The position numbers and the translations under genes are program-made. The notes under the pieces are model-generated. The model saw only the letters and a program-made list of their open reading frames with translations. It ran no database searches and had not been told where the DNA came from. DNA of 64,000 nt from a virus, in the IMG/VR virus record IMGVR_UViG_3300025012_000053, positions 30,415 through 94,414 of that record, one strand, 5' to 3'. Numbering within the stretch: the stretch's first letter is position 1; every line of letters begins with the position of its first letter. Below are positions 1,793 through 32,349 of this stretch, one piece after another.

Positions 1793-2086
1793 TTAAGTAT
1801 TATATTTTTCCAGTTGTCTGTAAGAATCATCAATGATATCCTGAATGTCCTGTACTGTAAGAACATTATAATATTCTGTTATTGATACATCAGATATTAC
1901 TTCATACCTATAAAGAATCTCGATATACTTTGAGATCATTATATTACGTTCATTAAGTTCTTTCAGGAATATAAAGTTACCTGTATGATATGCAAAGCTT
2001 TTAGAAAGATCCAATCCAAGCCTTGAATGTAATAGTTGTATCGTTGCGATATCACTATTTAATTGTGTTTGACTGAATGCTTGCAT
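1793..2086 (-). CDS. hypothetical protein (small helical, tail region)
   Basis: 97 aa ORF collinear with operon. Confidence 0.6.
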   Translation of the reverse strand: MQAFSQTQLNSDIATIQLLHSRLGLDLSKSFAYHTGNFIFLKELNERNIMISKYIEILYRYEVISDVSITEYYNVLTVQDIQDIIDDSYRQLEKYNT

Positions 2087-4427
2087 TTATCAGTAAATTA
2101 TCTTCAACTAATTTATCAAGAATATACTTAATATCAATATCTTCTGTTATCCAGCGGATCAATAAATCTCTTTCTGCTATAGGGTTATGATGACTTGACG
2201 GACGAACATTTTTCTTCTGAAAATAATGACTCTGTTCAGATTGAAAAAATGTAAAGCCGGAGATGATTATCTCCTTGAATCCCATCCATCTTGCCAGGGC
2301 AATAGCCATTATCCCTACAGTAGGAAATGCTTTTATCTCTTCTGATACATATCTAAACACTTCCGAAAACTCTTCATTATCTCCATACATCCAGACAACA
2401 TTACCCATCTTAATAAGTTTCTCTCCATTATCCAGCCAGAACTCATGCATCTTCTTAGCATCAGTATACTTCTGATACATTGTTTCTGATATAGGAAGAA
2501 TTCCAAGAATAGGATAATCAACTTTATGGTCCGGAATAATTTCATGATAGAGACTGGATATATTAAGATCGATCCTGGATCCTATTTCCGGAAACCCAAG
2601 TTTAAAGTTATTACATCTCATTACAAAAGAATCATCAATCTCTTTTGATAGGTCTGTTTTGAATGGTCCATTACCAATAACTGAACAAGATGTTTTACCA
2701 CTGATGATCTTCTGTACTTCCCTTCTGATTATTCTATCATATTCCAATGGTTTACTTATAATATTCATCTTGTCTTTAAATCTTCTGGATGCCTGGTTAT
2801 GTATTATAACAGGCTTATCACATTGCAAGTATTTATTGTCTGCAATATGAATATACTCTTTTGGAAGATCAACGATCTTAACCCCCTGTAATCCTTCCAT
2901 TACTGCCTGAAAGTTTATAGCATCGGGATTATTGTTTTCAGAATTAAGAACTGTCCATCTGTTAATCACTTCCCGGGAAACAGTATTGTTTTTAAAGAAC
3001 ATGGTACCTGTCATCTTCTCATTCCACTGCTTAAGATAATGAAATGATATATCGCAATCGACAGTATAGAAGAATTCCGGCATTGCAAGTATCTCAGCAT
3101 CGGCATCGATCCAGATAACATCCTTCTTATACTTGTCCATTACAGATTTAAGGACCTGTGGTTTCATCTGAGTATTCTTCTCCCAGGATCCCTGATGACG
3201 AAGACCAACTATCTCATATGGAAGACCAAACTTATCAAGACTTGCTTTAAGGACTTTTACCTCTTCTTCATATGGAGTATCTGCAGTAAACATACTTACA
3301 TAGACAATATCATTACGTCCCGTGATCTTGCCTTCAAGCTTTTGGTTTATGAACTTAAGATTTTCTTCATTCTGTTTTCGAATATGATCAGCCACACCAG
3401 ATTTCTCTTTTACTATTAGTGCATGCTTCTGTGCTGTTTCATATTCACCCATCCAGTAATAACAGATCCCAAGTTCAAAGTCTGCCAAGTATGATTTATT
3501 TGTAGCATGAATAAATAATTTATCATTTACAGGATAATCCATCCTTAACACTTCTTCCTGAAGTAACCGGGCCATATGATATTTCTTCCGTTCTCTATAG
3601 ACAAGGCCAAGCAGATATAATGCCTCAAATCTTGAAGGACGGAATGAATAAGCTTCAATAAGCTGAAGAATGGCACTATCCATACTTTTAAGATGATATT
3701 GCATTACAGCTATCTGAAATAAGGAATAATATACTTCTTCCGGCCAGCCACCTCGTTTTGCTCTTTCCTCGTAATACTTTATGGCTTTATCATATTCCTT
3801 CATGTTGGCATATGTCTGTGCCAGGTAAAAGTAATTACGTGTATCGGATGGATTATCAATGATTGCCTTTTCAAGAAGATCGCGATCCCTGGTTAACTTC
3901 TCACTTCGTGTACCACCATCAGCATGATGTATTACTGCAAGAGATCTTAACTCAGGACTCTCCCCGCAATTCTCTCCATTAATATATTCATGTGTTACTC
4001 CAATATATCTGAATTTCTTTCTACCTGATATAAGTAAGATCTGTGCAAAATCAAGATCTCCCATGTATCTTAAATGATACCAGTCATATTTCAATTGTGA
4101 TTTGTCAAATAGATCTGATACTTTATATTCAAAGTCAGCATCGGCAAGAAGAAGATAATCTGCTTTATCATAGGCAAGAGCCATGAGCTCTGATCTGTTA
4201 TGTCCGAAGTTAACCCAGGGTCTTGCATGAAGTTCTCCTTTTATCCCGGCATCTTCCATTACATCAACGATTATCTTCTGTGTTTCATCAACAGATCCTG
4301 TATCAATAATAACATAGTAATCAATAAATGATTTACAGCTATCTATCATTCTTGCAATTACTTTCGCTTCATTACGAACTATTGCACAAAGGCATATTGT
4401 TTTTTTATCATTCATTTCATTTGTCAT
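2055..4427 (-). CDS. multi-domain glycosyltransferase: GT2 + TPR + nucleotide-diphospho-sugar transferase + GT29 (sialyltransferase)-like domain
   Basis: GT2 motifs ICLCAIVRNE, IIDTGS, LADAD, HEY; TPR repeats (YFYLAQTY, EVYYSLFQIA); second GT-A domain VIWIDADA; C-terminal CSVIGNG..IDDSFVMRCN, PTVG, HYF, HHNPIAE resembling sialylmotifs L/S/III/VS. Confidence 0.8.
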   Translation of the reverse strand: MTNEMNDKKTICLCAIVRNEAKVIARMIDSCKSFIDYYVIIDTGSVDETQKIIVDVMEDAGIKGELHARPWVNFGHNRSELMALAYDKADYLLLADADFEYKVSDLFDKSQLKYDWYHLRYMGDLDFAQILLISGRKKFRYIGVTHEYINGENCGESPELRSLAVIHHADGGTRSEKLTRDRDLLEKAIIDNPSDTRNYFYLAQTYANMKEYDKAIKYYEERAKRGGWPEEVYYSLFQIAVMQYHLKSMDSAILQLIEAYSFRPSRFEALYLLGLVYRERKKYHMARLLQEEVLRMDYPVNDKLFIHATNKSYLADFELGICYYWMGEYETAQKHALIVKEKSGVADHIRKQNEENLKFINQKLEGKITGRNDIVYVSMFTADTPYEEEVKVLKASLDKFGLPYEIVGLRHQGSWEKNTQMKPQVLKSVMDKYKKDVIWIDADAEILAMPEFFYTVDCDISFHYLKQWNEKMTGTMFFKNNTVSREVINRWTVLNSENNNPDAINFQAVMEGLQGVKIVDLPKEYIHIADNKYLQCDKPVIIHNQASRRFKDKMNIISKPLEYDRIIRREVQKIISGKTSCSVIGNGPFKTDLSKEIDDSFVMRCNNFKLGFPEIGSRIDLNISSLYHEIIPDHKVDYPILGILPISETMYQKYTDAKKMHEFWLDNGEKLIKMGNVVWMYGDNEEFSEVFRYVSEEIKAFPTVGIMAIALARWMGFKEIIISGFTFFQSEQSHYFQKKNVRPSSHHNPIAERDLLIRWITEDIDIKYILDKLVEDNLLINASIQSNTIK

Positions 4428-5462: not shown

Positions 5463-7313
5463 CTATTGTGTATATGGTCCACCTTTATTAAACCAGAAAG
5501 CACCACTCTCATCATAAAGGAATGCTAACAGATCCCTGTCATTAGGACCTGTATCAAAAGCAAATCCTGCCTCAGTATAATATGTTCCTGTAAGAGACAA
5601 GACATGATCTCCTGTATTATCCTGGATTATCTTTAAATTACCCTGATCTCCACTTACTACATTTGATATTATAAGAGTACAATCCTGAACAAGAGTAAGC
5701 TTTGCATTATATCCCTGCGTTACATCCCAATGAATTCCTGCTGTAGCATTATCAAGAATGATAAATGTCTTTGGCGCTTCTGCAGGTCCTGTAGGACCAG
5801 TACTACCAACTCCTGTTGCACCTGTAGGACCTATTGATCCTGTAACACCAGTTGGTCCTATTGCTCCCTGTGTGGCAAAAACTACAAGATCAACCCTCGA
5901 TACTCCCACAACACCTGTACCGGAATATCTCCTCATCCTTCCCTTAACATTATATGTTCCGGCAACAAGTGATGATGATCTTTTAACAACAGGGATAACG
6001 ATATAAGTAGGAGTGGTAGTAAGATAGGCAAATACCTCATCGGTATCAACACCATTGATCTGAAGAGTTAATCCTATTACTGAAGCACCACCGGAAACAA
6101 GTTCACATTGACAATTCATAATAGCCATTATCTCAACAGTAGATTCAAGAGTTATTGATGTTGTCACTCCTGTAATATCTATGAGTGTTGCTGAAGTGGT
6201 AGTTCTTAATGTCTCCATCTCGACAAATGAACTTGGGATCTTTCCCGCTACAGCATCAGCCCCTGCAGCACCAGTAGGTCCGGTTGCTCCTACAGCACCT
6301 GTCGCTCCATCTGCACCTGTGACACCCGCACCTGTGGGCCCTACTGGACCAGTGATTGAAGGTCCTGTTGGTCCAATGGATCCGGTTACACCATCAGCAC
6401 CTGTAGGACCTGTTATACTTGACCCTGTCGGTCCTGTAGCTCCGGTAGGTCCAGCAACAGTAGAATCTGCACCGGTTGGTCCGGTTGATCCTGTAGGTCC
6501 TGCAGGACCAGTAGCACCAGGTGAATATGCTCCACCATAAAGATTTATAATCCAGTCTGAATACGTACCTGATCCTGTATGGTTAACAGAAACCATAGAT
6601 AACTCTCCTGAAGCTGCTGTATAATTTACTACAGTAGCACGGAATAGATTATTAATATCATAAGCAACAACAATATCCTGTCCTAATGTAAATGCTCTTC
6701 CTGTAGAACATATCATATCTATTCCTGTAGGATGAGTTGTTGGAAGTGTTTCTGTTCCAGTAGATGTAGATGCAAATCTATCGGCATATCCTGTTGGACC
6801 TATTGATCCTATTGGTCCTGAAGGTCCTGTTGGTCCTGCCACTGTTGAGTCAGTGCCCGTTGGCCCTGCATTACCTGTTAATCCTATTGGACCAGTTGCT
6901 CCTGTAGAACCAGTTGGACCTGTATTCCCATCTGCACCTGTCGGACCAGTATCTCCTGGTATTATTGATGCGGCTCCTGTCGGACCTGTAGCACCAGTAG
7001 GTCCATCATCTCCTGTATTACCATCAGATCCTGTTACTCCTATAGGTCCTGTTGGTCCTGTAGAACCGGTTGCACCGTCTGCACCTATATCACCTGTTGG
7101 TCCTGATGGACCTGTAGGTCCAGTACCAGAAGATCCTGTTGGTCCAGTCGGACCTGTGGCTCCTATTCCTATAGGTCCGGTAGCACCGGCCACGCTAATA
7201 GTTTCTCCTGTAAGAAGAATAATATTTTTCTTATCATCCCTGGCCGGTTCAATAAATATATTACCACCATCGAGTTGTGGAGAAGGACCTAAGAATTGTG
7301 CACCGGTTGACAT
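5463..7313 (-). CDS. collagen-like (Gly-X-Thr) fibre protein
   Basis: Three blocks of GPT/GAT/GST triplets separated by globular domains; C-terminal phage fibre-like domain. Confidence 0.85.
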
Positions 7314-23959: not shown

Positions 23960-23967
23960 CAAAGGTA
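23960..23967 (-). promoter_or_regulatory. Bacteroidota sigma-70 -7 element (TACCTTTG)
   Basis: Matches the TAnnTTTG consensus in an intergenic gap upstream of the head operon. Confidence 0.5.
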
Positions 23968-24014
23968 AACTTGATTTTTATAAATTCCAAATTTATATTT
24001 TTCAGTTTTATAAA

Positions 24015-24934: not shown

Positions 24935-27454
24935 TTAAGAATTACTTTTTGCTTGCCCAATTCTTTTTACAGTTACTCCATCCTGATCAGAAATATATCT
25001 GAAAGGATCTATCACTATACTTCCTGCAGGAAACATGCAGTTCCTGAACACTTCATGCTTAGTTCCTATAAAGAATATTCTTGCATCACCAAGAAATTGA
25101 TATAGCTCATTTTCTTTCTGACCTGAATTTGGATCCAATTCTCTGCTCTTGCTGAACATATATACAGGATCAACCCATGGATCATACATCTTTATTTGTT
25201 TCTCGTCTATCCCTCTGTCAATTAATAAAAGTTCTTTTAATAAAAGAGATGGACTACCTATGGTAAGATTTGTTTCCGGTTTGAATGTATAGCCAAGGAT
25301 CATAATATCAAGATTACAGTCATTATTGAAATACTCATCTTCTATAAGCTGAGCAAGCCATTCTGTCTGTTTCTCCCGGGCCATCATAAGATTCTCCCAC
25401 CAGTCATAAGAGATATTGAGTTTCTTTGCAATATGACTCAGGGCAATATTATCCCTGGGATGACAATTATGAACTGTACCACAAGGTACAACATAAGTAT
25501 TATGTCTATCAATCCAGAGATTATAAACTGGTCCTTTAAACCATGTTTTATGTATCTGTATTATATGACGAAAAGTTCCTTTATTGGTGACTACATAGTT
25601 TTGAATGTCTACTGGATTTTCAATTTTATCCCATCCAATAATATCACATAATTTAGAAGCAAGATATTTATTTCTAACTCTTACTTCATATGCTTTCTTA
25701 TGAATACCTCTTGGTGGGATAACCCTCAACGAAGGACAAAGATCAAGACGATGTAGTATTATAAAACTCCCCCAAGCAAGATCTTTCGAAATTGTACTAT
25801 ATGAAATTCCATTCTTATTTCTATGTCCATCTCCAAGAATTAATCCTTTCAAAAGCAATAGCGATTGTTTTGACCATAAAATTTGAGGAGGAATATATTT
25901 TGTAGCTGCGCCTTTACCAAAATCATTAAATAATAATTCTGCAAGTCTTTTTGATCCAAATCTTACAGATAAACTATTCCCTTCTATTTTAATAGTAACT
26001 CTTGAAAAAAGACCTCTTAAATTTTTCCTTTTTGGAATAAGACCAAATCTCTCTGATGTTATTCTTTCAATTAATTCTTTAATTCGTTCAGCATACATCA
26101 TTTCTTTTGCATGCAAATCGAATCTTATTCTTCCCCTTCTCGAATTTAATTCAAGAGATCCCTCGCTTAAATACCAACCTGCAAGTTCAAGATATTCAGG
26201 AGGCATTCCAGGTTCTCTTCCTTCGTTAATCTTAGGCCAATACAACATATTATCATATGTTAGATCTGATGCTTTTATCTCATTGTCATCTGACATCAAT
26301 TCTGATATCTTTAATAAAGTATTCCTTCTCCCATCAGGAACCCTTGTTCTCAAATCAGTTGAAGCAATAACAGGATGATCAGCAGTCATTAATGTATGAG
26401 GAAGTCCTTTTGTTTTTAACAAAATCATATCTCCTTCATAATCCCTTACATATGTTTTTATTACTTTGCAAAATTCACCATTTCCCGAAAGCACCATGTC
26501 TCCTTCATTTATTTCTTCGATAGGTTTCATTCCATTATATGTCATTACAAGTTGTCCTGCAGGAAAACAGCCGCCTCCATCCCCCATTCCTGCTCTCATA
26601 TATGAAGCTGAAATGATTCTCCTATCAGCTAAGGATAAAGCATCAATAAGATGATCCACATCGGCTCCGGTCTTTTCACATAACTCCATAGCTGCATTAG
26701 CAAAGCAGATCTTACCTGTAATGTAAGTATTGTATAGGACCTTGATTGCCTCAGCTGTATTGATAGAGCATTCAAACACTTTAGGAAAATAATCAGCTTC
26801 CCGTGGAAATGGATTTAATACTTTTTTATAGAAATCCTTAACAATTTCTGCAGCATAAGGATCATCAACCCCCAGGAGAACGAATTCCGGATAAAGGAAA
26901 TCCTGTATTGTAGTACCCATTGCAATAAAGAATGGATTATAAACAATATGTAGATTAGTTAATTCTTTTGGTACTAAAGGAAATATCTCGCGGTACATCG
27001 TTCCGGGAAGCACCGTTGATATTATACTTACAACGAATTGCTTCCTTTCTGTTTCATCAGACATTCCATCCAAAATCATACCATTTATATATTCATTATA
27101 ATGAACAATCTCCTGAATGATATCCTTCATTCCGGCAATAAGATATGAATAGTCGAAATCCACCCTTTCTTTCGGAAGAGGTGTTATTCCTTCATACCTG
27201 GGATCATGTGGTGTCTGGATAGATACAAAACAGATATCACTTTCTGTAAGCACAGAAAATAGATTCTTTACTTCTATTTTCGTTTTTTGAAGTAACTCTT
27301 CCGCTCCCTCTTCGCGATACGGAATCTTCTTTTCATCGATGTATCTTTGTATTTGTGGATTAACATCATATCCACATACCTGATAGCCTCTTGACTCTAC
27401 AGCGAGAGCACAGGGCAAGCCCAACTTACCTAAAGCCACAAAACCGATTTTCAT
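24935..27454 (-). CDS. ugd: UDP-glucose/GDP-mannose 6-dehydrogenase family, intein-containing
   Basis: Rossmann KIGFVALGKLG, QTP, STVLPGT, YNPFF, AEAIKVLYN, GDGGG/CHPRD catalytic motif split by the intein, LGYTFKPET. Confidence 0.9.
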   Translation of the reverse strand: MKIGFVALGKLGLPCALAVESRGYQVCGYDVNPQIQRYIDEKKIPYREEGAEELLQKTKIEVKNLFSVLTESDICFVSIQTPHDPRYEGITPLPKERVDFDYSYLIAGMKDIIQEIVHYNEYINGMILDGMSDETERKQFVVSIISTVLPGTMYREIFPLVPKELTNLHIVYNPFFIAMGTTIQDFLYPEFVLLGVDDPYAAEIVKDFYKKVLNPFPREADYFPKVFECSINTAEAIKVLYNTYITGKICFANAAMELCEKTGADVDHLIDALSLADRRIISASYMRAGMGDGGGCFPAGQLVMTYNGMKPIEEINEGDMVLSGNGEFCKVIKTYVRDYEGDMILLKTKGLPHTLMTADHPVIASTDLRTRVPDGRRNTLLKISELMSDDNEIKASDLTYDNMLYWPKINEGREPGMPPEYLELAGWYLSEGSLELNSRRGRIRFDLHAKEMMYAERIKELIERITSERFGLIPKRKNLRGLFSRVTIKIEGNSLSVRFGSKRLAELLFNDFGKGAATKYIPPQILWSKQSLLLLKGLILGDGHRNKNGISYSTISKDLAWGSFIILHRLDLCPSLRVIPPRGIHKKAYEVRVRNKYLASKLCDIIGWDKIENPVDIQNYVVTNKGTFRHIIQIHKTWFKGPVYNLWIDRHNTYVVPCGTVHNCHPRDNIALSHIAKKLNISYDWWENLMMAREKQTEWLAQLIEDEYFNNDCNLDIMILGYTFKPETNLTIGSPSLLLKELLLIDRGIDEKQIKMYDPWVDPVYMFSKSRELDPNSGQKENELYQFLGDARIFFIGTKHEVFRNCMFPAGSIVIDPFRYISDQDGVTVKRIGQAKSNS
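25466..26569 (-). mobile_element. intein (368 aa) with LAGLIDADG homing endonuclease
   Basis: Begins CFPAGQLV, block B TADHP, LAGLIDADG motifs LAGWYLSEGS and LKGLILGDGH, ends VYNL...GTVHN followed by +1 Cys. Confidence 0.9.
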
Positions 27455-28080
27455 AATATATGAGTTTTAAGTTTAAAAAATCCATTAGATTCTTTATTCG
27501 AGTTCCAGTTCTCTTTTATCCCTTTCATACTATATCCGGACCATACTACTTCAATAAGATGACTCTGGAATGTATTACTCCACCATGTAATATCTTCTCT
27601 TATTATATGTGTTGAATCAAGTTCGTATGCTGGTTCGTTATATGTCATGCCATTATTAGACAGTGGTACTATAACGAAGATATTATCTGAACAAGATCGG
27701 ATCTCTTTTATTATATCATTGATCTTATCATAACCAATATGCTCAAGAACATCTTTACAGATGATCCAGTTCCATCTTTTCTTTTTCCAGAATTCTCCGC
27801 TATAAATATATTCATCTATATCAACAGGTACATTCTCAAGAGCATATTCGCTTATATCATATCCATAGGCATTAAAACCAAGTAATCGGAAAGCCTTAAC
27901 AAGATATCCCATTGCGCAACCAAAATCCAAGATGGTATCTTCATCAAGTATTACAAGTTCATTTGATAGTCTGTATGCCAATGGTATTGTTAATTCAGGC
28001 ATCCACCGGTACTGAGAATAAAGACTCTTTCCCGTTTCTAATCCCCTGATGTAATAATCCTCATCGTACTTTTCCATCAT
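27451..28080 (-). CDS. class I SAM-dependent methyltransferase
   Basis: ILDFGCAMG motif I, YGYDISEYA, DVLEHI. Confidence 0.85.
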   Translation of the reverse strand: MMEKYDEDYYIRGLETGKSLYSQYRWMPELTIPLAYRLSNELVILDEDTILDFGCAMGYLVKAFRLLGFNAYGYDISEYALENVPVDIDEYIYSGEFWKKKRWNWIICKDVLEHIGYDKINDIIKEIRSCSDNIFVIVPLSNNGMTYNEPAYELDSTHIIREDITWWSNTFQSHLIEVVWSGYSMKGIKENWNSNKESNGFFKLKTHIL

Positions 28081-29090
28081 ATAAAGTTTTCATATTCAAT
28101 CTTTTCTTTGATCCATATAGGATTATCGTTATGCATAAACCCTTCAAGCATATTGACATTATGAGTGAATACACATCCCTGGCAATCTCTGTTTGCATTG
28201 AAAGGCTGATCTATACTTCTACTCATATATTGCTTTATATCTTTTGCCACGCATAATGCATATTTCATATCAAAATATCCTGAATTATCGTTTAATGGTA
28301 TGCTATCACAAGGAAATACTATGCCACCAAAGATCTCACTTAAATATGGACGAAAATATGACTGATGACAGATATTACTTACTGGTGCTTCTTTCTTCTT
28401 ATGTTGAATAAAGAACCTGTTGTCATATTCTCTTCCAAGCCATTGATCGATCTCTTTATAACTATCTTCAATTTCTTCGTCTGTTTGCAGACAATCTGGA
28501 AGTACCCTGATATACTTTGCATTTATATGATCCGCTATTGTTACAAGATCATCCGGAGCGAATCTTTTATTTTCCCCTGAATAAACGAAACTCAGTCCTA
28601 CAGTGGTATTCTTTCCAAATTGCTTACTATTATCCATGAAGGAGCGTATCCAGTAATCATCATAATTGACACTTACGCGCACCCAGGAGAAAGGATACAT
28701 ATATATATAAGGTATGGTTGTTCCATTTGTTATAAGAGCTATTTCTTTTATTCCAGATCTGTGACTTCTGAGTAAATGAATAAGTTTATCAAACTGAGGA
28801 TATAATGTAGGTTCACCACCACCGGTTAATATGACAGCTTTACAGCCAAGATCAACTACATCTTCAATGTATCTTTTAATAACATCGAGTTCTAATCGTT
28901 CATGTTTTGCCCTTTTTATAACACTACAATACTTACATTTAAGATTACATCGGCCTTCAGGTGATATATGAGTTGAGACTATTGTTCGTGAATAACCTTT
29001 TTTGTAATTCTCCATCTGAGATTTATGTCTGAAAAACTTCAATCCTGTTGAAGTATATATGTCTATATTTCTCATAATCGTATTCTCCAT
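28077..29090 (-). CDS. radical SAM enzyme with SPASM/twitch-like C-terminal Cys cluster
   Basis: CNLKCKYC, LTGGGEP, LITNG; C-terminal C..., FPC, CQGC. Confidence 0.85.
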   Translation of the reverse strand: MENTIMRNIDIYTSTGLKFFRHKSQMENYKKGYSRTIVSTHISPEGRCNLKCKYCSVIKRAKHERLELDVIKRYIEDVVDLGCKAVILTGGGEPTLYPQFDKLIHLLRSHRSGIKEIALITNGTTIPYIYMYPFSWVRVSVNYDDYWIRSFMDNSKQFGKNTTVGLSFVYSGENKRFAPDDLVTIADHINAKYIRVLPDCLQTDEEIEDSYKEIDQWLGREYDNRFFIQHKKKEAPVSNICHQSYFRPYLSEIFGGIVFPCDSIPLNDNSGYFDMKYALCVAKDIKQYMSRSIDQPFNANRDCQGCVFTHNVNMLEGFMHNDNPIWIKEKIEYENFI

Positions 29091-30562
29091 AGTCTCTTAG
29101 GATAACCAAGTCTATATCTTACAACATCTATACATACCTGTAAAAGCTTCAATTGATAGTGGGCAATATTAGAATAAGTGGCATGTTTGATTTTTTCTTC
29201 TCTTAATATCTTATTCATATAAATCCCTTCCCTGTTTTTATATTCTATCTGTATCTCTTTAACTGTAGAGTCGATAGCATATATCATCTTGTTCTCTTTT
29301 ATAAAGATAGTTTTGTTTCCTGTATTTTCAATTTTAGTGACATAAGTTTCAAAATCAAAATACTCTTCATAGAACTGAGAACCTTTTGTAGGTCTTATCC
29401 CCAATGATAACCCACATGTATAAAAAGGATCCTGAATAAATTCTATTGTCTTCTCTATTGTTTCTTCAAGATCCCATAATAGCGTTCCGGGTGTTATAAG
29501 CATCAATGTCATGAATGTTTCAATATTGTATTCCTTCAATTTGACAAGTGCTTCGATATTCTTTTCTGCAGTGCACTTTTTTCCTATCTCAATAAGTACA
29601 TTATCGGAGAATGATTCTATACCGATATTGAGTCTTCTGAACCCTGCCTTTTTCATTATAGGAAGGATATCGTCATTGATATCATCGGCCCGGGCAAAAC
29701 ACATGTACGATAAATCATCAAGTCCTTTATCAATTACTCTTTGACAGAACTGCATAACAGTTTTCTTATTGATGCAAAAATCGTCATCGGTAATATATAT
29801 GGTCCGTACAAGAGGATGTGCCTTCCTTATTCTTAAGATCAGATCCGTCAATATATCGGCATCAATCCCATAAGAAACTACATTACATCCTGCAGCATCA
29901 GGTAACTGATTCGTAGATGTACAGAACTTACAATGATGAGGGCACATGTTACGCGAGTATATCCTTATTGTATAGATCTGCTGAAGTATCTCATCGGTAA
30001 TATTGTCTCCATATTTCTTAAGATAATAATCCCAATATGTTTCATAATTTATATTTTCCCAATCTATCTGAGAAGTAAATATCTCGAATTCTTCCTGGCT
30101 TAGACTTCTTGCTTTATTCTTAATGATTATTCCGGGTATTAACTCAAGATCATACTCATCACATATTAATAGCATAGGCATCTCTCCTTCTCCAATTACA
30201 ACTATATCGCATGGAGACTTATCGAGTATTGTCTGGTAGTTGTACTGAGCTTCTATGCCACCGGCAATAAGCATTGCATTTGGAAGAATATCTCTTGTGG
30301 TCCAAACATTACTGAGATCTTTAGCAAGTGTCTCTTCAAGACAGGAGAATCCTATTATATCCCAATCTTTCTCTTTGAGTTTATCTTCAACAGACATATA
30401 AGAATCACTAAGATCATGGAGGTTAGGATCGAATGCCTCTGCATAATGACCATTGGCATTAAGTACTCCTGCTATCCTGTTAACACCCATAGCAGGACTT
30501 ACATACCTGCTTTCATTAAGTCTGTTCGAAGAATGCGGCGATATCAGAAGGATTTGTTTCAT
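29072..30562 (-). CDS. cobalamin (B12)-binding radical SAM enzyme (class B methyltransferase-like)
   Basis: N-terminal B12-binding fold (DIIGFS, IAGG, VIGEGE), CPHHCKFC, DDDF, GIES; likely start MKQILLISP at 30562. Confidence 0.85.
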   Translation of the reverse strand: MKQILLISPHSSNRLNESRYVSPAMGVNRIAGVLNANGHYAEAFDPNLHDLSDSYMSVEDKLKEKDWDIIGFSCLEETLAKDLSNVWTTRDILPNAMLIAGGIEAQYNYQTILDKSPCDIVVIGEGEMPMLLICDEYDLELIPGIIIKNKARSLSQEEFEIFTSQIDWENINYETYWDYYLKKYGDNITDEILQQIYTIRIYSRNMCPHHCKFCTSTNQLPDAAGCNVVSYGIDADILTDLILRIRKAHPLVRTIYITDDDFCINKKTVMQFCQRVIDKGLDDLSYMCFARADDINDDILPIMKKAGFRRLNIGIESFSDNVLIEIGKKCTAEKNIEALVKLKEYNIETFMTLMLITPGTLLWDLEETIEKTIEFIQDPFYTCGLSLGIRPTKGSQFYEEYFDFETYVTKIENTGNKTIFIKENKMIYAIDSTVKEIQIEYKNREGIYMNKILREEKIKHATYSNIAHYQLKLLQVCIDVVRYRLGYPKRLWRIRL

Positions 30563-31385
30563 TATATATTTTGAGTAAGATTTTTTCCGGCAACTCCCTT
30601 CCATTATATGGTATTGCACGGGATATTGAGGACCTGTATTGTTTTGATATCTCAAGATCCCTGTTATTAGTTTCATAATCCCATGTCATCCACATATCAA
30701 GCCAGTTTTCATCAGGGATCGAGTCTCTTATCACGGCAGAGAACGCGAGGGCTGTAAGATGCTTCCAGTACATCACCTTCTCTGATATAGCAAATCCGAA
30801 ATTATGAACAAAGCTATTGAGGACTTTTATGTTACTTGTCTCTCCATTTCCTTTTGTTACCGGTAATTTTGATAAGTTTGTCATGTTCCAGAATACTACT
30901 CCTGTCCTGGCTGGTCTTTCCGGAATACGAAATAAATGAGTCTTCCATAACTCTACCTGTTTTGTCTTCGCGGATTGATATCCTTTCTCGATAAACTCAT
31001 TAAAGGATGCTTCAACCTGGTCCTTTCGAAATACATGATCAACTTCCGGGATAATAAATATATCAGGTTTGCCATGATTGGGAATGACATAGTTGTTTAT
31101 AAGTGTGGTGTAAAGATTCCAGGGTACGGAATAAGGATTCATCTCTTTAGTCTGCTCGATAAGGATTATCTTCGAATTATTAAGATCCCTGATCTTTTGA
31201 ACCACGTCATCAAACTTCTCAGGAAACTTAATCTTTACACCTTTATATATACACTCAGATACATTTCCCCAGGGTTTGTTTGTCCAGAATACAAATATTC
31301 TATCAACGTGATCAATGATCGATAATATAGATTCCTGAATGTAATCTTCCCCATAGAGACACCGGTAGACCGCGTATGTTATCAT
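30516..31385 (-). CDS. GT-A fold glycosyltransferase-like protein
   Basis: YGEDYIQESILSIIDHVDRIFV N-terminus; EVD in place of DxD; HNFGFA. Confidence 0.65.
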   Translation of the reverse strand: MITYAVYRCLYGEDYIQESILSIIDHVDRIFVFWTNKPWGNVSECIYKGVKIKFPEKFDDVVQKIRDLNNSKIILIEQTKEMNPYSVPWNLYTTLINNYVIPNHGKPDIFIIPEVDHVFRKDQVEASFNEFIEKGYQSAKTKQVELWKTHLFRIPERPARTGVVFWNMTNLSKLPVTKGNGETSNIKVLNSFVHNFGFAISEKVMYWKHLTALAFSAVIRDSIPDENWLDMWMTWDYETNNRDLEISKQYRSSISRAIPYNGRELPEKILLKIYNETNPSDIAAFFEQT

Positions 31386-31603
31386 ATCTTAAACCTGTCA
31401 AGTTTCTCCTGCAGTTCCTTTATCCTATCCTTAAGCTGGCCAATAACCATTATAAGTACAAATATTGTCATCCCGGATACAAGTAACCAGTGACCAATTC
31501 TTGGTATACCAAGGAACCAAAGTAACCAGGCAAGAATGGTTGTTAGCCAGATAATAGTTGAAGTCATATTTTCTTTTAAATAACGTAAAATAATGTTTGT
31601 CAT
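31382..31603 (-). CDS. small membrane protein (2 TM)
   Basis: Two hydrophobic stretches; ATGA overlaps with both neighbours. Confidence 0.6.
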   Translation of the reverse strand: MTNIILRYLKENMTSTIIWLTTILAWLLWFLGIPRIGHWLLVSGMTIFVLIMVIGQLKDRIKELQEKLDRFKI

Positions 31604-32349
31604 TTTGCTGTGTTTTTAAGGTTTAAGTATTTCTCGATTCTCTCCGTGATCATTTCTGCTGTAGCCATCCGGTTCTTATCGGATAACTTGAATACTGTTG
31701 TATCTACATTATGAGTATCATTGTTTCTCCACTGCATGTAGGTATTGTCTCTTGGTGAACTGCCATTACTGAAATGAAGATGTTTTATTACTACCTCAGG
31801 AATATACTTTGTTACTCCTGTTTTTTTTGCAATATCGAACACCCAGGTATCATGATAGAAGAAATGGAAGCAATCAGGAACGAAATATCCCAGGGCCCCG
31901 ACCCAATGTTTTGTAACTATAGGAAACGCACAATGCTTTTCACCATTTATACTATCATCAAAATAATAACAGAAAAATGGATGTTCTGCTGCCATCAGTC
32001 TTTCTTCAAGGATAATATCCCAATCAGGTGTGATATAAACAAGATCATCATTTCCCATTATAAATACATCAGGACTATCGTTCCATGCTTTCATTCTGGC
32101 CAGTTCATTCCAGATCTTACCTATCGGCCGGCGTTCCTCTTCAATCATGGTCATTATAATATTGTCATGACTATGATCCTGCATCATACGAAGTATATCA
32201 TAATAGTCTTTTTTCCCTGGATCATCTGAATCTATTCCAAACAGGAAATAGATTTTATTTTGCCGGCTTACAGTCTTATTAATACTGTCAAAAAACCTGT
32301 AAAGCTCTTTTGGTCTTTGTCTTGTTGGTGTAAGGATAGCTATCTTCAT
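31600..32349 (-). CDS. glycosyltransferase family 2-like
   Basis: MKIAILTPTRQRP, IDSDD, MGNDD, HFFYHDTW, IKHLH. Confidence 0.8.
   Translation of the reverse strand: MKIAILTPTRQRPKELYRFFDSINKTVSRQNKIYFLFGIDSDDPGKKDYYDILRMMQDHSHDNIIMTMIEEERRPIGKIWNELARMKAWNDSPDVFIMGNDDLVYITPDWDIILEERLMAAEHPFFCYYFDDSINGEKHCAFPIVTKHWVGALGYFVPDCFHFFYHDTWVFDIAKKTGVTKYIPEVVIKHLHFSNGSSPRDNTYMQWRNNDTHNVDTTVFKLSDKNRMATAEMITERIEKYLNLKNTAK

Follow-up and report, generated by a model that had tools for sequence, protein, structure and literature searches.

The window, the whole 64,000-nucleotide stretch that we analyzed, comes from the 97%-complete genome of a groundwater phage and contains a tightly coupled seven-gene operon running from position 32349 to 24935 on the minus strand. 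The crAss-like label given in a preliminary description was borne out, in that this is a divergent Crassvirales-like phage whose TerL is 42% identical to that of gut crAss phages, and the seven minus-strand open reading frames described there are all present. The features are as follows:

31600 to 32349, minus strand: predicted 249-aa GT-A (GT2-like) glycosyltransferase, first cassette gene (phrog_14945; AF2/Foldseek fold)
31382 to 31603, minus strand: 73-aa protein with two hydrophobic helices, outside the conserved core (translation, Kyte-Doolittle)
30516 to 31385, minus strand: 289-aa protein of divergent GT-A fold, second glycosyltransferase candidate (AF2/Foldseek fold)
29072 to 30562, minus strand: 496-aa B12-binding-domain radical SAM enzyme (PF02310 and PF04055)
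28077 to 29090, minus strand: 337-aa radical SAM enzyme with twitch/SPASM-like C-terminal cysteines, core gene (PF04055)
27451 to 28080, minus strand: 209-aa class I SAM methyltransferase (PF13489, phrog_27380)
24935 to 27454, minus strand: 839-aa Ugd-like nucleotide-sugar 6-dehydrogenase precursor (PF03721, PF00984, PF03720)
25466 to 26569, minus strand: 368-aa intein with a LAGLIDADG homing-endonuclease domain, inside the dehydrogenase (Hint, LAGLIDADG_3)

Translational coupling had been claimed, and every successive gene pair does overlap, by 4 to 47 nt. Read 5' to 3', the overlaps are 4, 4, 4, 47, 19, 4, and 4 nt; the first of these joins the 249-aa glycosyltransferase gene to an upstream 102-aa gene, and the coupled chain therefore begins before the region originally flagged. 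The SSB-like, GroES-like, and TerL/portal/MCP genes all lie downstream of the cassette, in agreement with its placement upstream of GroES and the head module. Its late-strand position had also been used as evidence about the target of the pathway. The strand is correct, but the argument does not carry the weight it was given: the single Bacteroidetes-type promoter match on the cassette strand falls in the interval from GroES to the packaging genes. It separates the cassette from packaging and structural genes, and the cassette may therefore form a unit of its own. Nucleotide-metabolism genes are the cassette's neighbors in other phages, which also counts against the late-strand argument, and myophage cassettes adjoin nrd and thyX genes, not structural genes.

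The first gene product matches a PHROG family annotated as glycosyltransferase (phrog_14945, E = 2.5e-44), and its AlphaFold model (AF2; pLDDT 92.2) has a GT-A fold, with WrtF, PcManGT, SpsA, and K4CP as top Foldseek matches. D101-D102 (in an N-D-D motif) and H190/H192 are invariant across 25 relatives, 12 of which match PF00535; neither this protein nor the 289-aa protein itself has a Pfam match. Searches of NCBIfam and PHROG with the latter were also without a match. Its family is small (169 representatives among 1.8 billion), and its AF2 model (pLDDT 96.6) is closest to SunS, with SpsA, WrtF, and TarS also matched (TM about 0.45). Elsewhere, the 289-aa domain is fused to TPR, GT29, GT2, methyltransferase, and MptE-like domains, and both glycosyltransferase domains also occur joined, together with a GT29 domain, in single proteins of 1000 to 1224 aa. 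The modeled folds and the PF00535 matches agree with the two glycosyltransferases originally proposed, and we infer that both proteins are soluble GT-A enzymes, although the fold is common to sugar nucleotidyltransferases as well (Foldseek), which counts against a firm assignment. The 73-aa protein encoded between them has hydrophobic spans at about residues 15-33 and 36-56, consistent with its description as a 2-TM protein; it has no family match in Pfam, NCBIfam, or PHROG, and in the relatives L022, L103, and L107 the gap between the two glycosyltransferase genes is too small for it.

The last gene had been annotated as a UDP-glucose dehydrogenase. All three UDPG_MGDP_dh domains are indeed present, together with a match to phrog_9148 (E = 4.5e-66), but this is not a plain Ugd. 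The protein is divergent and scores below NCBIfam cut-offs (171 bits against 189.8 for TIGR03026, the intein-free L022 ortholog also falling short), and directly before its catalytic Cys it carries the 368-aa LAGLIDADG intein, which the preliminary description did not mention. Alignment with four intein-free orthologs, crAss relatives included, placed the junctions at GDGGG/C...VHN/CHPRD, with TADH as block B. The exteins alone amount to 471 aa, and the intein-less protein is, as predicted from its domains, a divergent NDP-sugar dehydrogenase.

In the 337-aa radical SAM protein, a PF04055 match is accompanied by C43/C47/C50 and an auxiliary pattern (C236-X14-G-X4-C256, C275, C298-X2-C301), all invariant in 18 relatives. 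The proposed SPASM-like character is upheld by this cysteine pattern but not by Pfam, which gives no SPASM match for the protein itself; the atlas clusters closest to it are viral, with PF13186 (SPASM) present in one. The family is mostly viral, with 202 IMG/VR matches. The protein lies below all curated equivalog cut-offs, and its N-terminal core alone aligns to any solved structure, weakly resembling BlsE, viperin, and MoaA. The 209-aa protein is, as claimed, a SAM methyltransferase (class I; phrog_27380, E = 2e-36). This methyltransferase adjoins a 337-aa-type radical SAM gene in 69 of 80 viral loci and is 35% identical to that of cyanophage SynMITS9220M01, where the pair lies within an ADP-heptose and glycosyltransferase cluster; elsewhere the pair is found beside GT9-like, TylF-type O-methyltransferase, and GT2 genes.

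A B12-binding domain (PF02310, 48 bits) and a Radical_SAM domain (PF04055, 63 bits) confirmed the annotation of the remaining enzyme as a B12-dependent radical SAM protein. Its reading frame is open back to 30676 (534 aa), while a start at 30562 agrees with the database gene call, the entry of 100% identity being 496 aa long. The CPHHCKFC cluster motif is invariant. The protein scores under every NCBIfam equivalog cut-off, and an INPHARED search gave no match. Relatives of 43-49% identity are located in bacterial and archaeal sugar clusters, the bacterial neighbors being RmlD/epimerase, UDP-galactopyranose mutase, rSAM-SPASM, nucleotidyltransferase, TIGR04372 glycosyltransferase, and ABC-transporter genes. 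The enzyme is itself co-conserved, being kept at the identical cassette slot in four metagenome contigs (L102 to L104 and L107), and the cassette B12 enzymes form one clade separate from cellular sequences (FastTree topology). Judging by these relationships, it is a rare add-on of bacterial type in a variable slot. OxsB and AprD4 are its only solved relatives by sequence, and very distant ones (E = 5e-7 to 8e-4). Since B12-domain radical SAM enzymes also cyclize, dehydrate, and contract rings, the "methylated" sugar of the preliminary description is an assumption.

Rather than being scattered in relatives, the operon genes keep the order glycosyltransferase-glycosyltransferase-radical SAM-methyltransferase-(variable)-dehydrogenase in 48 to 50 of 80 IMG/VR loci, and among the cassette loci are those of four crAss-like relatives, in which the genomic slot is the same. 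The five-gene core is also collinear with gp156-162 of Pelagibacter phage HTVC008M at 31-44% identity (249-aa glycosyltransferase, 38%, gp156; 289-aa protein, 31%, gp157; 337-aa radical SAM, 44%, gp158; methyltransferase, 42%, gp159; dehydrogenase, 33%, gp162). Elsewhere the variable positions hold a carbamoyltransferase, a sulfotransferase, extra methyltransferases, or a GT32-like glycosyltransferase; carbamoyl, sulfo, and methyl groups and extra glycosyltransferases are classic glycan decorations. Cassette presence is patchy, in a hypervariable slot, and all carriers seen are of virulent type (crAss-like or T4-like). As the preliminary description had stated, we found no account of such a pathway in a crAss-like phage in the literature, but the pathway is not peculiar to one, its core being already present in the cultured pelagiphage HTVC008M. 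On gene order and identity, this core is common to unrelated aquatic phages and not specific to crAss phages.

Taken together, the gene content suggests that the cassette very probably serves in sugar tailoring plus transfer. Of the earlier proposal that the phage makes and attaches a tailored sugar, the unit of oxidation, tailoring, and transfer survives, whereas methylation, the collagen target, and uniqueness are unsupported or overstated. In the scheme we propose, the Ugd-like enzyme would be active only after intein splicing and, by homology, would then oxidize an NDP-hexose to a uronic acid. The twitch/SPASM-like enzyme might perform hydrogen-abstraction chemistry on the sugar (for example, oxidation, epimerization, or dehydration), after which the class I methyltransferase might methylate the processed sugar. 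A bacterial-type B12 gene would have been captured into the variable decoration slot, and its product could conceivably carry out one more radical reaction, in the simplest case C-methylation. The 249-aa and 289-aa enzymes, from their fold and conserved acidic motifs, would add sugars in turn to the acceptor. Fe-S assembly, reductant, SAM, and cobalamin would be supplied by the host.

As acceptor we tentatively favor one or more of the phage's own virion proteins, giving this somewhat less than an even chance; a mobile phage cassette would then make and decorate a sugar and transfer it to the particle. We favor such an acceptor because the conserved enzymes are all soluble, because the phage lacks lipid-carrier or flippase parts (no GtrA or Bac_transf family member in the 97%-complete genome), and because among the fusion partners of the 289-aa domain are modules (TPR and Maf-like, MptE) typical of protein glycosyltransferases. 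Counted against it are the promoter-like separation from structural genes, the myophage nrd/thyX setting, and the MCP, which among 11 relatives has no Ser/Thr-rich extension or indel tracking cassette presence. The Gly-X-Thr collagen fiber once suggested as the target shows no covariation with the cassette: collagen repeats are absent from HTVC008M and from two further carriers whose genomes are complete or nearly so, and a crAss relative with a different cassette still keeps the fiber and the neighboring GT2-TPR enzyme.

We consider it rather unlikely that the same enzymes instead remodel a host envelope glycan (LPS O-chain/core or capsule) during infection, working on lipid-linked host intermediates on the inner side of the membrane, for instance to prevent superinfection or change recognition. 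This is how homologous glycosyltransferase, Ugd, and radical SAM genes are currently interpreted in pelagimyophages and cyanophages (PMC7029224; PMC12801897), the pelagimyophage genes being read as host O-chain modifiers (PMC7029224). It would also suit the cellular B12-enzyme relatives in polysaccharide clusters with ABC transporters, the 2-TM protein inside the operon, and a patchy distribution in a hypervariable slot like that of host-range or arms-race genes. However, the genome is without a flippase, GtrA, initiating phosphoglycosyl transferase, polymerase, or ligase, the 2-TM gene is missing in relatives, virulent-type carriers would be short of time for rebuilding a surface polymer, and the TPR and Maf-like fusions indicate protein acceptors.

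It appears improbable that the product, in place of a polymer decoration, is a soluble small molecule acting in the cell (such as a nucleotide-sugar carrying modifications, or a compound resembling a nucleoside or aminoglycoside), which might for instance counter host defense or serve as a metabolic decoy. OxsB and AprD4 make a nucleoside and an aminoglycoside, the 337-aa core has its weak similarities, and nucleotide-metabolism genes neighbor the cassette in several phages, but the solved-structure similarities are restricted to the common radical SAM core (E = 1e-4 to 1e-8), and two to three glycosyltransferase domains with carbamoyl and sulfo decorations better suit an oligosaccharide. Hypermodification of phage DNA with the tailored sugar, the alternative raised previously, is very improbable. 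In three lineages the cassette adjoins SSB-like and nucleotide-metabolism genes, and Bacillus phage SP-15, with its glucuronate-containing DNA hypermodification, counts as a precedent. Yet a ThyA-family (hydroxymethylase-type) gene was not found in the 97%-complete genome, the cassette glycosyltransferases are GT-A/GT2-like in fold and not GT-B like T4 beta-glucosyltransferase, the multi-glycosyltransferase fusions with GT29 and the carbamoyl and sulfo decorations are glycan-like, and the 337-aa enzyme has no match in any phage whose DNA is known to be hypermodified. We give hardly any credence to maturation of a RiPP by the radical SAM enzymes and methyltransferase, with the 73-aa protein as a precursor glycosylated by the glycosyltransferases. 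Radical SAM enzymes of the B12 and SPASM types often serve as RiPP maturases, weak NCBIfam matches to such families occur, the operon contains a small ORF, and SunS, the top fold match of the 289-aa protein, is a peptide S-glycosyltransferase; against this, that ORF encodes a 2-TM protein missing from all relatives, no RRE/PqqD domain was found, even in the N-terminal extension of longer radical SAM homologs, the conserved partners are always sugar enzymes, and the B12-enzyme relatives lie in sugar clusters.

Transfer of a tailored sugar to virion proteins, the reading we favor, has a counterpart in the mycobacteriophage virion glycosylation operons reportedly described by Freeman and colleagues in Cell Host Microbe in 2023 (cited in PMC12801897), in which soluble glycosyltransferases and methyltransferases decorate the phages' own capsid or tail proteins. 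The cassette likewise encodes soluble glycosyltransferases and a methyltransferase and, in the reading favored here, would act by the same mechanism; there is no detectable sequence relationship, and those operons are not known to contain radical SAM, B12, or dehydrogenase genes. The phages matched by the 249-aa glycosyltransferase are HTVC008M and phages of Streptomyces, Arthrobacter, and Actinoplanes; the organisms listed include no Mycobacterium phage. Like the class B enzymes GenK/GenD1, OxsB, and AprD4, which are cobalamin-dependent radical SAM enzymes for sugars or nucleosides, the B12 enzyme has its B12-binding domain at the N terminus, ahead of a CX3CX2C core, and lies in a sugar-pathway context, but the phage protein falls under every curated NCBIfam cut-off. 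BtrN, DesII, and BlsE, twitch/SPASM radical SAM enzymes acting on sugars, share with the 337-aa enzyme the CX3CX2C and C-X14-G-X4-C ... C-X2-C pattern; the 337-aa protein, always found among sugar enzymes, differs in its mostly viral family and in having no Pfam SPASM match.

UDP-glucose dehydrogenase is listed among metabolic intein hosts (PMC2874743), and the present intein shares with those the Hint and LAGLIDADG domains, Cys1, a TxxH block, terminal His-Asn, and a +1 Cys, whereas the gene it interrupts is part of an auxiliary cassette in a phage. In HTVC008M, gp156-gp162 are part of the pelagimyophage "host recognition cluster" of glycan genes (Zaragoza-Solas et al. 2020, PMC7029224), in which methyltransferase and dehydrogenase are separated by a carbamoyltransferase and a bona fide NadE; HTVC008M lacks the B12 radical SAM enzyme, the intein, and the 2-TM gene. 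The two phages differ in kind, HTVC008M being a T4-like myophage whose host is marine and aerobic and the present one crAss-like and from groundwater, yet both carry the five core genes in the same order.

The cassette lies in a 94.4-kb contig that is 97% complete by CheckV and of which the window covers bases 30415 to 94414. The phage is a divergent Crassvirales-like virus: its TerL is 42% identical to those of gut crAss-like phages, and its portal and major head protein (MCP) match crAss-type PHROGs. Window DNA was found in groundwater and soil metagenome DNA runs, which may be the contig's own source, and no RNA runs were listed among the sequencing runs containing it. The cassette itself comprises the following genes.

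32349 down to 24935, minus strand: seven ORFs of 249, 73, 289, 496 (open to 534), 337, 209 and 839 aa

All seven ORFs described in the preliminary description were present. Their junctions overlap, in order, by 4, 4, 47, 19, 4 and 4 nt, and the operon-like arrangement is therefore real; a 102-aa gene upstream also overlaps the first cassette gene, encoding the 249-aa protein, by 4 nt. The 73-aa protein, with two hydrophobic helices, is encoded by a gene that was not found in the cassettes of relatives. A scan for sigma-70 promoters and terminators performed no better than shuffles, while the Bacteroidetes promoter pattern TTTG-N18-21-TAnnTTTG gave 6 matches in the window, compared to 2.0 expected by chance. 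One of these lies on the cassette strand.

23960-23991, minus strand: the only match to the Bacteroidetes promoter pattern on that strand, between GroES and the small genes preceding TerL

With the sole match on this strand located between GroES and the packaging genes, placement on the late strand, previously offered in support of a virion target, is weak evidence for one.

Neither the 249-aa nor the 289-aa protein matched Pfam. Alignment-based AlphaFold models of the two (pLDDT 92.2 and 96.6, respectively) both adopt a GT-A fold, with a Foldseek probability of 1.0 to SpsA, SunS, WrtF, TarS and K4CP and with PcManGT also among the top structural matches. Members of the 249-aa family share an invariant N-D-D motif (D101, D102), and PF00535 is matched by 12 of 25 relatives of the 249-aa protein; in the 289-aa family, D116 of an E-V-D motif hardly varies. 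Together, these models and motifs identify both proteins as predicted glycosyltransferases of the GT-A fold (GT2-like) with a DxD-type acidic motif. The 289-aa protein belongs to a small family that accounts for 169 of 1.8 billion cluster representatives, and the domain occurs fused to TPR repeats and to GT29, GT2, methyltransferase and MptE-like domains. Scanned against IMG/VR as a single-sequence pattern, the 249-aa protein gave no match.

The 337-aa protein is a radical SAM enzyme by Pfam, and its cluster cysteines are invariant in 18 homologs. Also invariant in these homologs is a C-terminal set, C236-X14-G-X4-C256, C275 and C298-X2-C301, in a pattern typical of twitch/SPASM auxiliary clusters. 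The SPASM family PF13186 was not matched by the 337-aa protein itself in Pfam, and it is found in 91% of the members of one related viral cluster. The 209-aa protein is a class I methyltransferase (Pfam, PHROG), and its gene adjoins that of the radical SAM enzyme in 69 of 80 IMG/VR loci. Other viral contigs carry the pair beside GT9-like, TylF-type and GT2 genes. A homologous pair is also present in Synechococcus phage SynMITS9220M01 (L021:1-10447), together with a heptose-7-phosphate kinase, a phosphoheptose isomerase, an ADP-heptose epimerase and two glycosyltransferases; in this ADP-heptose cluster, therefore, the same tailoring pair is joined to a different sugar supply.

The last gene had been called a UDP-glucose dehydrogenase (Ugd). 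Its dehydrogenase domains were confirmed (Pfam PF03721, 66 bits; PF00984, 64 bits; PF03720, 28.6 bits, just below the cut-off of 30), but an intein within it had been overlooked and its scores fall under the Ugd cut-offs.

25466 to 26569, minus strand: 368-aa intein with Hint_2 and LAGLIDADG_3 domains (Pfam), splitting the 839-aa Ugd-like precursor of a 471-aa dehydrogenase

Alignment with four intein-free orthologs from other phages places the insertion point directly before the catalytic cysteine (GDGGG/C...VHN/CHPRD, slashes marking the borders), such that predicted splicing would restore the context GGGCHPRD. The intein carries Cys1 (CFPAG), a TADH block, a terminal His-Asn and a +1 Cys, and thus has every feature of an intein with a homing endonuclease (Hint, Cys1, TxxH, His-Asn, +1 nucleophile, LAGLIDADG). 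Contigs from four groundwater runs contained neither an intein-less junction nor any variant, their sequence being identical. UDP-glucose dehydrogenases with inteins have been recorded before (PMC2874743). None of the NCBIfam cut-offs was reached by the dehydrogenase (TIGR03026, 171 vs 189.8; AglM, 119 vs 670; TuaD, 110 vs 700), and the intein-free ortholog of another cassette locus (L022) gave the same sub-cut-off picture, including for TIGR03026. We therefore file the protein only as a divergent NDP-sugar dehydrogenase. The intein adds a post-translational gate and signals mobile-element traffic in an auxiliary gene. Separately, the TerL genes of several crAss-like relatives (L128/L129, L124, L131 and L135) and of INPHARED relatives match the uninterrupted TerL of the window in two pieces, with a gap of ~1 kb near residue 290 at which one INPHARED relative has an annotated LAGLIDADG protein. 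The two-piece match suggests an intein or intron in the terminase genes of these relatives.

A search of the operon DNA against INPHARED gave no match. At the protein level, the best phage match of the 249-aa glycosyltransferase is Pelagibacter phage HTVC008M, in which gp156, gp157, gp158, gp159 and gp162 correspond, in the same order, to the glycosyltransferase, the second GT-A protein, the radical SAM enzyme, the methyltransferase and the dehydrogenase (38%, 31%, 44%, 42% and 33% identity, respectively). The HTVC008M cassette differs in having a carbamoyltransferase and a true NadE between the methyltransferase and the dehydrogenase; gp161 (L020:14378-15133), annotated as NAD synthetase, scores 178 bits against a TIGR00552 cut-off of 64 and is thus a bona fide NadE, and its gene adjoins that of the NAD-dependent sugar dehydrogenase. 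A profile of the 337-aa enzyme gave 202 matches in IMG/VR, from which 80 loci were kept for gene-order counts. In 48 to 50 of these 80, both glycosyltransferases and the dehydrogenase accompany the radical SAM-methyltransferase pair in collinear order. In three loci, the two glycosyltransferase domains are fused in one protein of 1000 to 1224 aa; the one fusion that we scanned with Pfam (locus L084) also contains a GT29 domain. Additional genes in other cassettes encode carbamoyltransferases, sulfotransferases, methyltransferases and a GT32-like glycosyltransferase. Given this collinear core in HTVC008M and the IMG/VR loci, the genes are clearly not scattered among relatives; scattering with no co-conservation was the outcome named beforehand as counting against the proposed pathway.

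The 496-aa protein has an N-terminal B12-binding domain (PF02310, residues 55-167; 48.2 bits, cut-off 32.1) together with a radical SAM core (PF04055, 62.9 bits) in which the CX3CX2C motif reads CPHHCKFC, and C207, C211 and C214 are invariant across 16 homologs. By domain and motif, it is a predicted class B (B12-binding) radical SAM enzyme, whose activity may be cobalamin-dependent methyl transfer or instead that of a cyclase, a dehydratase or a rearrangement enzyme. No curated NCBIfam equivalog scored above its cut-off, the best being BchE (98 bits vs 481), and the only solved relatives found by sequence, OxsB and AprD4, are very distant. We found no match to this enzyme in INPHARED (tblastn, 50,697 genomes) or in IMG/VR pattern scans. 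Homologs at 43-62% identity number in the hundreds, and four metagenome contigs (L102 to L104 and L107) carry a gene for a 55-69% identical protein at the same position, between the 289-aa glycosyltransferase and the 337-aa radical SAM enzyme; in L103, it is accompanied by crAss-type neighbours and a sulfotransferase. Contigs of 47 kb, 25 kb and 10 kb, whose sizes match in both homolog searches, also appear to carry the two radical SAM enzymes together.

Cellular relatives of the B12 enzyme (43-49% identity) come from SAR11-type, Rhodospirillaceae, Patescibacteria and archaeal MAGs, where their neighbours include genes for RmlD/epimerase, UDP-galactopyranose mutase, radical SAM-SPASM, nucleotidyltransferase, kinase/HAD, methyltransferase and TIGR04372 glycosyltransferase proteins and ABC transporters. 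The nearest atlas clusters are bacterial for the B12 enzyme and viral for the 337-aa enzyme, and the cassette-borne B12 sequences group in a single clade, separate from their cellular relatives (FastTree, topology only). We read the B12 gene as a putative bacterial-type gene captured into a variable decoration slot of a viral cassette. In four bacterial MAG loci (L001, L002, L003 and L013), we observed a recurrent order of radical SAM-SPASM, UDP-galactopyranose mutase, radical SAM-SPASM and B12 radical SAM genes, continuing with a TIGR04372 glycosyltransferase, a methyltransferase and an ABC transporter; such loci seem to encode a polysaccharide pathway, as yet uncharacterised, in which three of the steps use radical SAM chemistry.

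Comparison with crAss-like relatives whose TerL is 60-84% identical points to the site upstream of the SSB-like, GroES and TerL genes as a variable slot. Some relatives (L128/L129, L124, L131 and L117) have a cassette there that lacks both the B12 gene and the intein, and others (L112/L125 and L122) have no cassette at this site. In a further relative (L135:1030-5500; IMGVR_UViG_3300033388_004609), the same slot holds genes for a 417-aa B12-domain radical SAM enzyme, a GT11 protein (fucosyltransferase family) and a 369-aa radical SAM enzyme. These gene contents suggest that radical-SAM glycan cassettes have this slot as a hotspot.

To consider what the sugar might be attached to, we turn to the tail region, where a collagen-like fibre had been suggested as the target.

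2055-4427, minus strand: 790-aa GT2-TPR-MptE(Maf)-like enzyme, beside the collagen-like fibre
5463-7313, minus strand: collagen-like Gly-X-Thr fibre (GPT/GAT/GST triplets), beside the 790-aa enzyme

The enzyme (52-69% identity) and the fibre (54-64%) are kept together in all four long crAss-like relatives, including L135 with its different cassette, and three cassette carriers from other lineages, all with complete or near-complete genomes, contain no collagen repeats. The fibre thus does not co-vary with the cassette. The 790-aa enzyme, the only PF00535 match in the phage genome, showed no relationship to either cassette glycosyltransferase family by hhalign, and together with the fibre it looks like a separate fibre-glycosylation candidate. 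An MCP alignment likewise revealed no indel, extension or other feature tracking with the cassette. The proposal that the phage makes an unusual sugar and transfers it to a virion target is upheld in part: the co-conserved cassette supports the making and transfer of a sugar, the fibre as target is not supported, and the late-strand argument is weak.

Three observations favor an acceptor in the cytoplasm, probably a protein: the conserved enzymes are all soluble, GtrA and an initiating phosphoglycosyl transferase are absent (no match to PF04138 or PF02397 in the 97%-complete genome), and the 289-aa domain occurs in TPR/Maf-like fusions. A serious rival is that the cassette modifies the host envelope, which agrees with the published reading of the pelagimyophage homologs (PMC7029224). 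Transfer to DNA, the alternative raised at the outset, is unlikely, as the genome has no ThyA-family gene (PF00303) and both cassette glycosyltransferases have GT-A rather than GT-B folds. We give low weight to a role of the cassette in RiPP maturation.

Among these readings, we tentatively favor one of glycosylation of the particle itself, as a possibility rather than an expectation. The mostly viral core (two GT-A proteins, the twitch-like radical SAM enzyme and the methyltransferase) might constitute a widespread, so far unrecognised virion self-glycosylation system of crAss-like phages, T4-like pelagiphages and other lineages, into which the groundwater lineage may have recruited a bacterial cobalamin-dependent radical SAM enzyme, so that the particle surface would bear a uronic-acid sugar in C-methylated or rearranged form. 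If so, viral glycan pathways would gain their first B12-dependent step, and a glycan on virions would mean that virion glycosylation reaches beyond actinophages into crAss-like and T4-like phages, with bearing on adsorption, particle stability and recognition. The label "LPS genes" has been given, without test, to the sugar genes of abundant aquatic phages. Our analysis defines a compact, conserved five-gene core, and as it occurs in a phage that is in culture with its host (HTVC008M on Pelagibacter HTCC1062), its product and target are directly testable. Two families of radical SAM enzymes, of which one is mostly viral and the other captured from bacteria, together with the variable slot (carbamoyl, sulfo, methyl, B12-radical), amount to a natural and unstudied library of sugar-tailoring chemistry.

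The cassette departs from two known phage glycosylation systems. Gtr-type serotype conversion (GtrA/GtrB/GtrC) employs a GtrA flippase/polyprenyl-phosphate glycosyltransferase system that was not matched in the phage genome. T4-type DNA glucosylation needs a ThyA-family hydroxymethyl-pyrimidine synthase, which this phage lacks, and a DNA glucosyltransferase; the T4 beta-glucosyltransferase has a GT-B fold, unlike the GT-A enzymes here. The marks of virion glycosylation of the mycobacteriophage type would be a glycan on capsid or tail proteins and structural proteins extended by a Ser/Thr-rich acceptor stretch; the phage here has a Gly-X-Thr fibre, which does not vary with the cassette, and an MCP with no cassette-linked indel or extension. 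We found no paper describing a pathway of this sort in crAss-like phages. Phage glycan cassettes of this kind are already known, though uncharacterised; what is new here is the B12 radical SAM insert, the intein-gated dehydrogenase and the crAss-like carrier.
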